NCBI GenBank assembly: GCA_963714015.1
Contig: OY970223.1
Span: 1,824,001 to 1,888,000 of the forward strand
Reading direction: 5' to 3'
From: Vulcanimicrobiota bacterium
GTDB lineage: Bacteria; Vulcanimicrobiota; Vulcanimicrobiia; Vulcanimicrobiales; Vulcanimicrobiaceae
Length of the DNA: 64,000 nt
This document shows, one piece after another, positions 59,338 through 64,000 of the stretch (position 1 is the first letter of the stretch; each line of letters begins with the position of its first letter). The translations under genes and the position numbers were made by a program. The notes below the pieces were generated by a model that searched no databases, was not told the DNA's origin, and saw only the letters and a program-made list of their open reading frames with translations.

Positions 59338-60474
59338 ATGGCCGGAATCTACGTCCACCTGCCGTTCTGTCCGTACATTTGCCCTTACTGCGATTTTGCA
59401 AAATGGCCGCACCGGAGCGGCGCCGCGCAACGCTATCTGCAAGCGCTTCTGACAGAGATTCGTTCGCAGCCGCAGGCGAATGGCGGCGAGCAATTTGAAA
59501 CGGTGTTTTTGGGCGGCGGAACGCCCAATACGTACTCGGCGCAAGATATTGCAATTATTTTGGATGAATTGCGATCGCGTTTTCCCGGACCGGCGGGTCG
59601 CGAGACCACCATCGAATTGAATCCGGAACTGGTGCGTGCCGAAGATGTGGACCTCTACCGCGAGGCGGGAATAACGCGTGTTTCCGTCGGCGTGCAGTCG
59701 TTCGCGCCGAACGAGATTCGCACGCTGGGGCGCCGGCATACCGTTCAAGACGTTCGCAGGGTCGTCGAGGCGGCGCGTGCTGCGCGAATCGCCGGCGTGA
59801 GTCTGGATTTGATCTTCGGCGTGCCGGGACAAACGGCGCAGAGTTGGCGGGAGTCGCTCAAAACGGCAGTCGCTTTGGGGGCGGATCATATCTCGACGTA
59901 TGGTCTAACGGTTGAGCCCGGAACGCCGTACGAGCGCTGGAAAGAACGCGACCCTTCGGCCTTTCCGGCGAACGATGACGAGGCGGAGCTTTACGAGATT
60001 GCGATGCTCGAGCTGGAGTCCCACGGATTCGAACACTACGAAATCAGCAATTTCGCAAAGCCGGGGCATCGCAGCGCGCACAACGCCAATTATTGGGCAA
60101 ACGGAGATTACGCCGGACTGGGCGTGGGCGCGGCATCGTACCGCCGCGGGGTACGATGGACGCATACGCGCGACTTGGAGGAGTACATTAACGCGGTATT
60201 AGAAGGTCAACCGATTCCGGCGCAATCAGAAGCGTTGATCGGCGCGCAAAAAGCGGGAGAGGCCGTAATGCTTGCGCTGCGCACGGCGCAAGGGGTATCG
60301 CTGGAGACGTTCAAAGAGCGGTACGGTTTGGACTTTTTGGAATTCTACGCCCCGGTCGTGCAGGAATACAGCGAAATCGGTTTGTTGGAAGTGAGCTCGA
60401 CGCATGCACGGCTGACGCGCCGCGGGCGGTTCTTGGCCAATGACGTATGCGCCGCTTTCGTGACGTTCGCGTAG
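59338..60474 (+). CDS. hemW: Radical SAM heme chaperone
   Basis: '[16 protein letters not shown]', 'GGGTP', 'YEISNFAK', 'HNANYW'. Confidence 0.93.
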
Positions 60475-60491
60475 GCCCCAGCGTTGCAGGC

Positions 60492-61547
60492 GTGCTGCTG
60501 CGGTTCCTTTTCGCAGTCGTCTTCGGCATAACCGGATTTCTCCTCGGACGCGAAGCGTATATTCACGTTTTCTCCCTGCATTTTTCCAGCGAGGCGCTGC
60601 AAACTGCGCTCACCATCGTACTGCCGATTGCCGGCGCCCTCCTCGGCATCGTGCTGGCGCCGCTCGCGCAATCGCTTTTTGAAGAAGAGCTGAATTTGGT
60701 CGAGCGTGCCATCGAACGGCTGGCGCCGGCCGAACTGGCGGGCGGCGCCGTCGGATTGATCCTGGGTTTACTGATCGCGTTCCTGATCCGCAGCATTTTG
60801 TTCGAATTCATCTCGACCACCGGGCGGGCGGGCAGTTACGTCGCGATTCTGCTGTACCTCATCATCAGCATATTTGCCGCGTATTTGGGCGCGCGCGTGG
60901 GCTCGAGAATGCACATTCTGCCGCTCGCAAGCGTCGGAAGCTTAGCCGGAGCGCCGCCGAAGATCGTCGACACGTCCATACTGATCGACGGCCGAATCGT
61001 CGAGATCTTCGAATCGGGTTTTCTCGACGGGCCGTTGATTCTTCCGCGCTTCGTTCTGCGCGAACTTCAGGCGGTGGCCGATTCGAGCGACGGCATGAAG
61101 CGCACGCGAGGACGACGCGGCTTGGAAGTGCTCAAACGGCTTCAGGAACTGGGTATTTTGGAAGTGAGCGAACGCGACTACGACGATTTGCGCGGCGCGG
61201 ATGCCAAACTGGTGCGCCTCGCCAAAGATTTGGACGGCAAGCTTCTGACCAACGATTATAATCTGAATAGAGTGGCGCACGTGGAAGGCGTGGCCGTCCT
61301 GAACGTCAACGAACTTGCGAACGCAATAAAGCCGGTCGTTTTGCCGGGCGAGGAGATGCACGTGCATATTATTCGCGACGGGAAGGAGCCGCATCAGGGC
61401 GTCGCCTACTTGGACGACGGTACGATGATTGTGGTCGAGAACGGACGGCGTTTAGTGGGCGAGGCGGCCGACGTAGTCGTGACGAGCGTGTTGCAAACTG
61501 CGGCGGGCCGCATGATTTTCGCCAAACCGAAACGGGAGTTTCGTTGA
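60492..61547 (+). CDS. yacL: Membrane PIN/TRAM domain protein (YacL-like)
   Basis: Four TM, '[10 protein letters not shown]', 'RGRRGL', 'TNDYNLN', '[11 protein letters not shown]', 'TSVLQT.AGRMIFA'. Confidence 0.93.
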
Positions 61548-62266
61548 TGGAGCCTTCCTCGTACGGATGGGCCGCAATTGTTGTAGCGGCAGGCCGCGGG
61601 CGGCGATTCGGCGGCCCTAAGCAGTTGGTGGAGATAGCCGCGCAGCCGATGCTCGCGTGGTCGCTCCGCACGTTTGCCGCGATGGAGGAAGTTGCGCAGT
61701 TGATCGTCGTGACGGAAGCCGAATGGGTGACCGACGTCTCGGCGGTCGTCGAGCGCGTCGCCGGCGTGAAGCGGTGGAGCGTCGTCTGCGGCGGACCTAC
61801 ACGGCAAGCGAGCACGTTTGAGGGCATTCGCGCCGTTCAGCCGCAATGTACGGCGGTGTTCGTTCACGACGGTGCTCGTCCGCTGATTCGCGAGAGCGAC
61901 GTGCGCGCGGGAATGGAAGCCGTGCAGCCGGGGCATGGTTCGCTGCTTGCGATTCCCGTGGTCGATACGATCAAACGCGTCGCGTCTCACAGTCACGTCG
62001 TTGCCGAGACATTGGATCGCGATCTGCTGTGGGCGGCGCAGACGCCGCAGTTTGCGATGGTTGCGGACCTTCGCGCAGCGCATGAAGCGGGGCGCCGCAC
62101 CCAAGTCGAAGCGACGGACGATGCGATGCTTCTGGAACAGGCCGGCGTTCGCGTGCACGTGGTTTCGGGATCGCCGGAGAATTTCAAAGTCACCGTTCCG
62201 GAAGATCGCGAGCGCGCGGAACAGATACTTCGTTTGCGGTTCGCCGCGCAGCAGGGACGCCCGTGA
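61544..62266 (+). CDS. ispD: 2-C-methyl-D-erythritol 4-phosphate cytidylyltransferase
   Basis: '[11 protein letters not shown]', 'VHDGARP', 'QTPQ', 'TDD', 'NFKVT.PED'. Confidence 0.96.
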
Positions 62267-62736
62267 CGCGGGTAGGACATGGGTTCGACGCGCACCGTCT
62301 AGCGGAAGGGCGTAAACTGATTTTGGCCGGAGTGGAGATTCCGCATGAAACGGGCGCACTCGGGCATTCGGATGCGGATGTCGTGGCACACGCGATTAGC
62401 GATGCCTTGCTCGGCGCGGCCGCTTTGGGCGATCTGGGCGGCCGTTTTCCCGATACGGACGAGCGGTGGAAGGGCGCGAATTCAATGAAGCTGCTCGCGC
62501 AGTGCGTCGAAGAAGTGCGCGCCGCTGGATATGCGATTGCCAACGTCGACGCGACGATCGTGCTGCAGCGGCCGAAGCTCGCGCCGTATATCGCGAAAAT
62601 GCGCGAGAACGCGGCGCGATGCCTTGATATAGAGCCGTCGCACGTGAGCGTGAAAGCCAAGACCAGCGAGGGCATGGGCTATACGGGCGACGGTTCGGGG
62701 ATTGCGGCTTACGCAGTAGTGTTAATCGAGAAATGA
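62263..62736 (+). CDS. ispF: 2-C-methyl-D-erythritol 2,4-cyclodiphosphate synthase
   Basis: 'GHGFDAH', 'GHSDADV..HA..DALLGA', 'VKAKTSE'. Confidence 0.97.
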   Translation: MTRVGHGFDAHRLAEGRKLILAGVEIPHETGALGHSDADVVAHAISDALLGAAALGDLGGRFPDTDERWKGANSMKLLAQCVEEVRAAGYAIANVDATIVLQRPKLAPYIAKMRENAARCLDIEPSHVSVKAKTSEGMGYTGDGSGIAAYAVVLIEK

Positions 62737-63287
62737 TTGCGCGCGGTGAGCTTGCAGCGGAGATGCAGCGTTGGGGTTTTTTGGAAGATCCGGCGCCTGA
62801 GGCGGCGTTGCGCTGGATCGACACGTTTTTGGAAGCCTACGGCGATCGCTTGCAGTCGGTGAATGACGCCCGGCCCTACGTTGCCGAACTGCGCATGGAG
62901 GCGTGCGTTATTCCGGCGCTGGAACTGGAGCGTCTGCGAACACGCGAAGTACTATTCTTTTTGGACACCGTCGGACAGTACGTGGATAGCCAGGCGGAGT
63001 TGCGAGGCTTACCGCTGGAACACGACTTGGTCGAAATGGCGAAAGAATTCGGCATTTCGCCCAGCGACGCGCGCTACGCCGCGCGCATGGCTCTTACCGG
63101 GAAAACGGAAGGGCCGCCGCTGGAATTGTTGTTCCCGCTGCTCGGCCACGATAGGATCTTGATCCGGATCGGCGCAGTGAATTCCCGACTGTTGCACGGT
63201 CGCGGTCTCGAACCGATCAAATACGGCCCCGGCGGAGTTCCATTCGAACCGATCCACGGTACTCGTCCGGATGAAGACGACGTTTGA
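62733..63287 (+). CDS. Stand-alone glutamyl-tRNA synthetase anticodon-binding-domain protein
   Basis: 'RMALTGKTEGPPLELLFPLLGHDRILIRI' fits the GluRS C-terminal consensus; no HIGH/KMSKS domain; ATGA overlap with ispF. Confidence 0.75.
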   Translation: MIARGELAAEMQRWGFLEDPAPEAALRWIDTFLEAYGDRLQSVNDARPYVAELRMEACVIPALELERLRTREVLFFLDTVGQYVDSQAELRGLPLEHDLVEMAKEFGISPSDARYAARMALTGKTEGPPLELLFPLLGHDRILIRIGAVNSRLLHGRGLEPIKYGPGGVPFEPIHGTRPDEDDV

Positions 63288-63314
63288 CGGCCTGCATTCC
63301 CCAGGGTCTTCCAA

Positions 63315-63590
63315 TTAAACGGTCTGACGGCTGCGAACCCAGCCGAGCACTTTCGCGGCTACGTCTTGAGGCTGCACGTTCGTCCAGGTCCGAAAAGTCG
63401 TACCTGCGGTAAATCCGGGATGCTGTCCTTGCATTTGAACCATTACTTCGATGGCTTCGTTCCGGTTTTTGAGCGAGACGTTGAAAGCGTCGTACCAGTA
63501 CACCGGGCCGCGCGGATCCGTCCCCGGACTAACGGGGCCGAGCGCGCTTAGAAAATCCGCGCGCCATTCTTCGAACGTCGAAAATCGCAT
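63315..63590 (-). CDS. Hypothetical protein
   Basis: RBS GGAGG + ATG; 91 aa with protein-like composition. Confidence 0.65.
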   Translation of the reverse strand: MRFSTFEEWRADFLSALGPVSPGTDPRGPVYWYDAFNVSLKNRNEAIEVMVQMQGQHPGFTAGTTFRTWTNVQPQDVAAKVLGWVRSRQTV

Positions 63591-63642
63591 ACACCCTCCG
63601 TCCAGGGCGAAAGGTTCCGCCGCCGCTGCGGAGTTCCTCGGT

Positions 63643-63671
63643 AATAGAAGAGCCGCCCTCGTGGACGGCTC
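63643..63671 (-). terminator. Probable terminator
   Basis: Minus strand GAGCCGTCC-ACGA-GGGCGGCTC then TTCTATT. Confidence 0.45.
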
Positions 63672-63699
63672 CCGCGGCGATCGACGTCGAAGCCCTCGC

Positions 63700-64000
63700 C
63701 TACATGGGCGGCTTGATGTCGGCGACGCTATTGTACTGCGAAAACGTCCAGGTCTCGTCCTTGCCGAGGTATTGAACCGGAAGACCGTTCGCGCCGATCA
63801 GGAGGTCGAACGTGTCACCGTTTTGCCTGTTGACCACGTGATACTTGTGTGCGGCGGCAGTCGTCATACCCTTATCCGTAACGTTGTATTTTTTTCTAAT
63901 GTCGGAACTTTCCAGATTGAGCGTACGCAGATGTTCCATCAACGTGACCGCCATTGCAGGCTGCCCCGGCCGGGCCATCCATCTGCCGTCCATGCCTTCC
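63700..64000 (-). CDS. 3' part of a hypothetical protein (LppX/LolA-like C-terminus); runs off the window
   Basis: 'LLIG.NGLP', 'TFSQYN..DIKPP' ending. Confidence 0.6.
   Translation of the reverse strand, partial: EGMDGRWMARPGQPAMAVTLMEHLRTLNLESSDIRKKYNVTDKGMTTAAAHKYHVVNRQNGDTFDLLIGANGLPVQYLGKDETWTFSQYNSVADIKPPM

Follow-up and report, generated by a model that had tools for sequence, protein, structure and literature searches.

Why would a bacterial genome keep an intact gene for nothing but the anticodon-binding half of glutamyl-tRNA synthetase (GluRS), at the position where the gene of the whole enzyme (gltX) usually stands? The question is raised by an open reading frame (ORF) coupled to ispF in a 64,000-nucleotide stretch of a Vulcanimicrobiota genome (GenBank assembly GCA_963714015.1, contig OY970223.1, positions 1,824,001 to 1,888,000; the whole stretch is called the window here). 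The ORF, termed the ABD gene after its anticodon-binding domain (ABD), was compared with the GluRS genes of the genome holding the window (G000) and of its relatives; G, L and P numbers are working labels of the relatives' genomes, loci and proteins. The gene is read here as the remnant of one GluRS, type A, kept by selection after another, type C, had taken over, and its product as most likely a non-catalytic, non-essential protein that binds the anticodon loop of tRNAGln or tRNAGlu. We put the probability of this reading at roughly 0.55. The gene and its two parts are as follows.

62733..63287, plus strand: ABD gene, a free-standing GluRS-type anticodon-binding domain of 184 residues plus stop (ORF list, PF19269, fold, family homologues).
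62733..63197, plus strand: residues 1-155 of the ABD gene, GluRS domains IV and V, eight helices (AlphaFold2 model, structural alignment with model residues 1-160, column counts).
63198..63284, plus strand: residues 156-184 of the ABD gene, a conserved Gly/Pro tail and then a variable acidic end (AlphaFold2, column conservation).

The initial annotation had recognised the C-terminal, anticodon-binding part of GluRS in this ORF, and the identity was borne out by both profile and fold. The ORF matches the Pfam family Anticodon_2 (PF19269) with an E-value of 5.5e-08 and 33.7 bits (gathering score 23.6), residues 7-147 aligning to positions 2-138 of the 141 in the profile; in a genome-wide scan of G000 the gene scores 34 bits for the same family. 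AlphaFold2, run with an alignment of 38 rows, gave a model with a predicted local distance difference test score (pLDDT) of 92.9 and eight helices over residues 4-155. By VIA-align the model superposes on domains IV-V of 25 bacterial GluRS entries with Z-scores of 8.7-15.6. The best structural match is 2cfo_B (Z 15.6, root-mean-square deviation 2.8, 158 residues aligned), and the next unrelated structure reaches only Z 3.6. A Foldseek search with the model gave bacterial GluRS in every listed row down to rank 41. The absence of a Rossmann/HIGH/KMSKS domain, also annotated at first, held as well: the Pfam search gave no match to the catalytic domain PF00749, and the NCBIfam profile gltX_bact (TIGR00464) aligned through its C-terminal part only (347-464 of 470), with 18.7 bits where the cut-off is 289.95. 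The GatB/YqeY tail domain PF02637 was not among the Pfam matches of the ORF at E-values up to 1. The Pfam match and the fold match, together with the missing catalytic match, confirm that this is a free GluRS anticodon-binding domain, consisting of complete domains IV-V plus an extra tail and nothing else.

Like the 'alpha-helix cage' of canonical bacterial GluRS (2cfo, the non-discriminating GluRS (ND-GluRS) of Thermosynechococcus; 1gln and 1j09 of T. thermophilus), the ABD protein is matched by PF19269, with Z-scores of 12-15.6 over about 145-158 residues, and it retains the R...TG...G-P-x-L motif of the anticodon site. Unlike the canonical enzymes, it is a separate protein without the catalytic, connective-peptide and stem-contact domains; it is also more acidic and has, in addition, a conserved patch and a hairpin tail of 29 residues. 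The Gly/Pro tail had been noticed at the outset and taken for an addition to the domain. It is indeed real and conserved (residues ~156-184), with the consensus HGRGLEPIxYGPxGxPFEPIxG; H155, G156, R157, G158, L159, G165, P166, G168 and F171 (G001 numbering minus 1) are invariant in 20 sequences. It was not added after truncation, being already present in the intact full-length enzymes of G014, G083, G074 and G122. In the AlphaFold2 model the tail has a pLDDT of about 78-81 and is predicted to form a small beta-hairpin, with bridge residues 164/170. No significant second copy of the tail motif was found in the six-frame translation of G000 (best other match E 0.025), nor was it found among PDB sequences (best E 0.94).

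Two explanations had been offered for the free-standing domain, the first being that GluRS is split into two polypeptides and that the ORF encodes the anticodon-binding subunit of a catalytic-only partner elsewhere. The intact ORF with its translationally coupled start speaks for such an arrangement; as initially described, its ATG (62733-62735) overlaps the ispF TGA (62734-62736) in the sequence ATGA. However, the G000 assembly, a single contig of 3.56 Mb, contains only one PF00749 locus (C1:484243-485669, L001), which carries an ABD of its own at 69.7 bits, and no GluQ-like, C-truncated or other catalytic-only GluRS gene was found in the 25 family genomes searched. As the genome holds no catalytic-only partner, the split-enzyme explanation fails, and we regard it as very improbable. 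The 25 family genomes, G000 included, and 16 outgroup genomes of families f2 and f3 form the 41-genome set used below. A GluQ-like catalytic-only paralog of ~317-335 residues was seen only in the sister family f2, beside two full GluRS (G025:C81, G027:C55:26856-27665, G028:C191, G029:C504).

Free-standing catalytic halves of GluRS are well known in the form of Glu-Q-RS (YadB), which glutamylates the queuosine of tRNAAsp. Like YadB, the ABD gene preserves one half of GluRS in nature as a gene of its own; unlike YadB, which is the catalytic half and an enzyme, the ABD protein is the anticodon-binding half and cannot be one. A 2009 study of Dubois, Blais, Huot and Lapointe (Biochemistry 48:6012) reportedly found that the free distal domain of E. 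coli GluRS is stable and stimulates a C-truncated GluRS in trans, a precedent for a split enzyme. G000 differs from that engineered split enzyme, a laboratory construct, in having no C-truncated partner.

The gltX gene of G000 (C1:484243-485669) is read in two frames, with the break at a run of five C (GCCCCCAG) near C1:485000, and it lacks 8 residues of the conserved DEGPDxGGPHGPY stretch when compared with the ortholog of the same genus. The gatB gene (C1:2002706-2004137) is also divided between two frames. Both frame breaks are probably indel errors of the single-contig assembly, which has an estimated completeness of 89.6%. GatB is encoded in G000, no GlnRS was found there, and the genome has genes for tRNAGln(UUG, CUG) and tRNAGlu(UUC, CUC), the tRNAGln with U1-A72. 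In the ARAGORN fold, the acceptor stem of both tRNAGlu genes (C1:440799-440873 and C1:3088102-3088174) starts with a G1-U72 wobble pair. The genes of tRNAGln(CUG) and tRNAGlu(CUC) adjoin, with 5 bases between them.

Three types of GluRS, labelled A, B and C in this analysis, were distinguished among the relatives. Type A is the ispF-linked GluRS, in the order ispD-ispF-gltX-cysE-cysS, and the short ABD form shares its slot, ispD-ispF-(gltX or ABD)-cysE-cysS. Type B is a second canonical GluRS. Type C starts with RTRIAPSPTGDPHVGTAY; its nearest structure is that of P. aeruginosa GluRS (5tgt, 614 bits with the type C protein of G001), followed by the GluRS of Moraxella and Chlamydia. The signature of the noncanonical dimeric GluRS subfamily comprises Asp15, Trp341, Gln399, Trp403, Arg432, Phe/Tyr439, Arg464, Arg468 and an LGG...K-rich extension, Tyr at position 439 being the variant of Chlamydiia (PMC12088422). 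Type C carries this PaGluRS-like signature (D14/15, W341, Q399, W403, R432, Y439, R464, R468), and in its C-terminal extension the LGG is present and the Lys-rich motif only partial. By these residues, the housekeeping GluRS of most family members belongs to the P. aeruginosa/Chlamydia-type noncanonical subfamily. The phylum is not listed among the taxa with noncanonical GluRS in section 8 of PMC12088422.

Type C, at 58% identity or more to that of G001, occurs in 23 of the 25 family genomes including G000 (20/22 counting public genomes alone) and was absent from all 16 outgroup genomes searched. This distribution suggests that it was acquired horizontally. All 16 outgroup genomes (f2, f3) carry types A and B, those of f2 also the GluQ-like gene, and the two family genomes without type C (G014, G015) keep a full-length type A plus type B. 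Genomes with a degenerate full-length type A have type C in 5/5 cases, at 66-70% identity, and genomes with a motif-intact type A are without it in 5/5. Where type C is present, what is left of type A is either a full-length protein with a degenerate catalytic core (5 genomes checked) or the ABD with its Gly/Pro tail. More than one PF00749 match in a family genome was due to a frame or contig split, to an A+B pair or to a degenerate type A. One or two in-frame TGA codons were seen in the type C matches of G022:C43, G012:C28, G159:C10, G089:C70 and G058:C21; in some of these the alignment may simply have run past the ordinary stop codon, which does not account for others, such as the two of G022.

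The type A genes themselves are found in all states from enzyme to fragment. In G014, G083, G074 and G122, all without type C, the tail-bearing type A is intact and has HVGG, a Zn-type insertion, KLSKRH and EDTD. In G054, G159, G139, G108 and P0123 it is degenerate at full length: an insertion of ~41 residues is gone and PSPTG, HIGH, EDTD and KMSKS are altered. G132 and P0122 have barely any recognisable N-terminal motif, P0122 reaching no more than 43 bits for PF00749. Such degenerate full-length forms are reminiscent of pseudo-synthetases. In pairwise comparisons their N-domain is less conserved than the ABD in 21/21 cases (36-73% vs 64-89%), whereas in pairs of intact enzymes it is at least equally conserved in 6/6. 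The 438-residue type A of genus g14 (L032 in G015, L083 in G135, L084 in G103) is without the ~41-residue Zn-type insertion and without the tail, and type B is present beside it. It keeps HIGH, EDTD and KMSKS despite the missing insertion, so that a type A without the insertion is not necessarily inactive on that account.

The short ABD form is present in 22 family genomes of the 41-genome set, G000 counted. Among the 24 other family genomes, 23 contain a match to the ABD, the sole miss being G010 (unpublished, 75% complete). The gene ispF lies directly upstream in 21 of the 22 short-form loci; that of G004 instead has cysS and a SpoU methylase downstream. In basal short forms (G012, G016, G024, G019, P0121), ~15 residues of the ancestral N-terminus run on directly, without a change of frame, into the beginning of domain IV; on alignment this fusion is a deletion scar. 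A neighbour-joining tree was built first and maximum-likelihood (ML) trees afterwards, the final ML tree being confined to public rows. In that tree the 21 short forms make up one clade inside type A (ultrafast bootstrap (UFBoot) 99, SH-like approximate likelihood ratio test (SH-aLRT) 95) and 7 degenerate full-length forms another (84/97), and both clades arise among intact type A forms. Since the short forms are one clade on the public rows, a single origin is claimed for them. By sequence comparison, the ABD gene can be traced to the ispF-linked type A paralog, which looks GluRS2-like.

At least two independent truncations were hinted at by one ML tree, a result that rested only on the unpublished G023; with public rows the short forms are one clade, and the idea was dropped. 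The G023 bin (L025, L040) has a dead full-length type A and a short ABD gene on different contigs, each beside an ispF. The bin could be a mixture of two populations, or truncation could have happened independently for a second time.

The initial annotation had held that the clean start coupling and the tail argue against simple decay, and it had named as contrary evidence a full-length gltX at this position in relatives together with an ORF confined to one strain. Relatives do carry a full-length gltX at the same spot, but the short ORF is not strain-specific: a family-wide scan at E ≤1e-10 gave a match in 131 of the 151 genomes, and these represent 66 of the 78 genera, or in 121/141 genomes when 10 unpublished ones, all matching, are left aside. 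In a set of 5.8 billion proteins, 1078 proteins of 101-322 residues match the ABD at E ≤0.001. A phmmer search over 1.84 billion representatives gave 49 clusters, all fragments or close relatives, and the Atlas matches are PF19269-only clusters in 30/30 cases, with Vulcanimicrobiota as the commonest phylum label. At NCBI the proteins of the relatives are named Candidatus Baltobacteraceae, which is probably the family in question.

The ABD is also well kept in sequence. Among the loci, the 15 most similar ones (L006-L020) all show a higher identity for the ABD than for ispF or ispD, as in G001 with 85% for the ABD vs 77% for ispF and 63% for ispD; at greater distance, in four loci (L024, L025, L028 and a further one), the ABD is about level with, or slightly below, one neighbour. 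Compared with the ABD of the type C GluRS itself, it is more conserved in 10/10 pairs of five public genomes (63-77% vs 47-72%). The short forms share 58-85% amino-acid identity though their synonymous sites are saturated, and in 56 of 183 columns all of 20 sequences agree. The ratio of nonsynonymous to synonymous substitution (omega, dN/dS) by the Nei-Gojobori method (NG86) has a median of 0.19 and a maximum of 0.41 over 211 of 231 pairs, the other 20 being saturated; the values are rough, dS being above 1 even for the closest pairs, and 2 of the 22 sequences come from unpublished genomes. The conservation and dN/dS check proposed for this gene gave an omega of ~0.2 and family-wide retention. 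Such a pattern demonstrates strong purifying selection on the ABD, which was evidently retained after the noncanonical GluRS took over. Its near-unchanged retention across most of the family indicates that the ABD protein probably has a function of its own.

These data also bear on the possibility that the ORF has no function, being left over from a recent deletion or a misassembly, and is being lost. Loss of the gene in some lineages and the indel errors of the G000 assembly would agree with it. It is contradicted by the carriage in 131/151 genomes and 66/78 genera, by the identity kept over saturated synonymous sites with omega at ~0.2, and by the stronger conservation of the ABD than of the neighbouring essential genes (the 15 most similar loci) and of the housekeeping GluRS ABD (10/10 pairs). 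We give it next to no credence, and the first view of the ORF as something other than simple decay stands, on grounds of conservation, purifying selection and family-wide occurrence.

What the protein binds was approached through the residues of the anticodon site, mapped to T. thermophilus GluRS in two steps (1j09 alignment plus MAFFT). The codons concerned are the following.

62847-62849, plus strand: codon of ABD gene R39 (variable column).
63084-63086, plus strand: codon of ABD gene R118 (invariant column).
63111-63113, plus strand: codon of ABD gene G127 (invariant column).
63120-63122, plus strand: codon of ABD gene L130 (invariant column).

R118, G127 and L130 are invariant in 38/38 sequences and occupy the columns of T. 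thermophilus R435, T444 and L447; R71 (35/38), R141 (37/38) and R145 (38/38) are further near-invariant arginines. In the account of PMC12088422, the conserved Arg (R435) stacks on U35 and bonds to C34, and the U34 site is lined by L447. At the column of the anticodon-contacting Arg, Tyr is found in 6/6 type C sequences. The Thr444 column holds Gly in 22/22 short forms and 13/13 type A proteins, and Ser in types B and C. At the Arg358 column, Arg is found in 12/12 type B and 6/6 type C proteins, and Glu, Gly or His in 13/13 of type A. The Arg of 'YGDRL' (R39) had been proposed at first as the anticodon-discriminating Arg. Its position in the alignment is indeed that of T. thermophilus Arg358, but this column is not conserved, with Arg in 7/22 short forms, the window protein among them, and never in the full-length parents; R39 is thus unlikely to be a conserved discriminator.

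The parent type A resembles the H. pylori-type GluRS2 in that it coexists with a second GluRS in genomes without GlnRS. It also has Glu/Gly (or H/G, G/G) at two specificity positions, H. pylori 334 and 417, which we take to be T. thermophilus 358 and 444 and columns 39 and 127 here, in agreement with their spacing. This E/G/H plus Gly signature makes type A look GluRS2-like, and the free ABD keeps the Gly. The H. pylori GluRS2 was switched from tRNAGln to tRNAGlu by Glu334Arg/Gly417Thr (PMC2978374, PMC2777447). Unlike that enzyme, the window protein is without any catalytic domain, and a tRNAGln preference of type A is a prediction from its sequence.

Our preferred reading, an anticodon-loop binder kept by selection, builds on a course of evolution that the comparisons show. 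A noncanonical type C, apparently acquired horizontally, took over aminoacylation; type B was then lost and the catalytic core of type A released from selection, to decay in one lineage and to be removed by an in-frame internal deletion in another, with the ABD and its tail under strong purifying selection throughout. Through its retained canonical contact residues, the ABD protein probably still binds the anticodon loop of tRNAGln, perhaps also that of tRNAGlu. In this role it would be a dispensable helper in trans, serving either the indirect route to Gln-tRNAGln or tRNA(Glx) handling, and the conserved patch (residues ~53-98) and the tail would provide a docking surface. This corresponds to the second explanation offered initially, a repurposed tRNA-Glu/Gln-binding factor; it is compatible with all the data and is favoured here, the binding itself being predicted from the retained residues.

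Several observations weigh against this reading. Type C and GatB occur without a second PF19269 match in G058, G089, G052 and G064 (91-98% complete), and genera g50 (0/4 genomes) and g81 (0/3) are without the ABD gene. The ABD protein is dispensable in some lineages, which argues against an essential role. The short proteins are acidic, with a median net charge of -9.5 and a pI of 4.9, unfavourable for stand-alone RNA binding; the median net charge for the ABDs of full-length enzymes is -4 in type A, -1.5 in type B and 0 in type C. The Arg358 column is unconstrained in the short forms. Furthermore, tRNAGln has the ordinary U1-A72 GatCAB identity pair and GatB has its YqeY tail domain, leaving no visible need of a helper.

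Some candidate explanations were tried and rejected. Acquisition of GlnRS by the lineages lacking the ABD gene does not apply, PF03950 being found in 0/5 and GatB kept in 5/5. The ABD does not replace a missing YqeY tail of GatB: PF02637 is present in gatB, its only match in G000. Nor is there support for the idea that GatCAB needs an anticodon reader for want of tRNA identity elements, as tRNAGln and tRNAAsn both have U1-A72.

The acidic character of the protein leads to the main rival, an exapted protein-binding or regulatory module that no longer binds tRNA and whose lineage-specific patch and hairpin tail hold a protein partner. Besides the strongly negative net charge, the unconstrained column of the base-36 discriminator is in keeping with it. 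The best-conserved stretch, PALELERLRxRxVLFFLDxVxQYVDxQxELRGLPL (residues ~61-96), and the tail are lineage-specific and not conserved in class-level type A; both predate the truncation (full-length G014, G083, G074 and G122), which would fit an earlier moonlighting interaction. A pure adaptor, however, would have no need of R118, G127 and L130 or of R71, R141 and R145, all invariant or nearly so, and neither a partner nor a similar tail elsewhere in G000 or in the PDB was identified. We hold a pure protein-binding role to be possible, as a minority view.

The Tyr of type C at the anticodon-contacting position (6/6) suggests another role for the free ABD, that of a trans-acting specificity subunit which supplies type C with the Arg435-type anticodon reader so that tRNAGln gets charged. 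Type C shares the signature of the PaGluRS subfamily, dimeric enzymes in which the ABD of one subunit serves the other (PMC12088422), and GlnRS is lacking in G000, both in line with such a subunit. The trans effect reported for the free E. coli domain points the same way. Yet four near-complete genomes run type C and GatB with neither a free ABD nor GlnRS, Chlamydiia use a noncanonical GluRS without GlnRS (PMC12088422), and type C has a complete ABD of its own. This role seems quite unlikely to us. It is likewise doubtful that recognition and catalysis are naturally uncoupled in this family, with the ABD as the canonical tRNAGln anticodon reader in trans beside a type C that lacks the anticodon Arg. 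If this were true, the ABD may mark or shield (Glu-)tRNAGln, or pass it on among GluRS, GatCAB and the ribosome. Such a protein would be the counterpart of Glu-Q-RS, a living free GluRS(C) module of the kind required by 'chimera' domain-shuffling models of GluRS2 evolution.

The genes upstream of the ABD gene in the window belong to a conserved block.

60447..61547, plus strand: PIN/TRAM membrane protein (YacL-like), first gene of the conserved yacL-ispD-ispF-gltX block (PF01850, PF01938).
61544..62266, plus strand: ispD (PF01128, 195 bits).
62263..62736, plus strand: ispF (MEcPP synthase), its stop overlapping the ABD start codon (PF02542, 226 bits).

The order PIN/TRAM (yacL-like)-ispD-ispF-ORF, as first annotated, is supported by these Pfam matches. 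A scan of 60300-64000 gave no promoter-like site at all; it found 3 terminator-like sites, fewer than the shuffle mean of 5.0 and none of them after the ABD ORF. Downstream of the ABD gene, G000 has two small ORFs on the opposite strand, 63315..63590 (-) and 63700..>64000 (-), without a Pfam family. They replace the cysE-cysS pair found in relatives (L017, L021, L027), so that the conserved block is broken here.

Synthetase modules kept for non-catalytic tRNA binding or regulation have parallels in the Trbp111/Arc1p-type OB-fold proteins, in HisZ and in the HisRS-like domain of Gcn2, and the ABD protein is like them in this respect. To our knowledge, these have unrelated folds and none goes back to the anticodon-binding domain of GluRS. 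Full-text literature searches gave no account of a GluRS anticodon-binding half that is natural, conserved and free-standing; Glu-Q-RS, as the opposite half, and the engineered split E. coli GluRS come closest as precedents. ABD ORFs are labelled 'glutamyl/glutaminyl-tRNA synthetase' in some sources, which would mislead inventories of aminoacyl-tRNA synthetases in this uncultured phylum. For experiments, the ABD protein offers a small, well-folded candidate tRNA(Gln/Glu)-binding protein. The family as a whole presents a complete natural series, from the intact enzyme through a pseudo-enzyme with a decaying core to the ABD-only gene, tied to the apparent arrival of a foreign GluRS. The series shows which part of a synthetase paralog survives once catalysis is redundant, and it bears on models, such as those treated in PMC3927822, in which the N- and C-domains of GluRS are lost, regained and shuffled independently.

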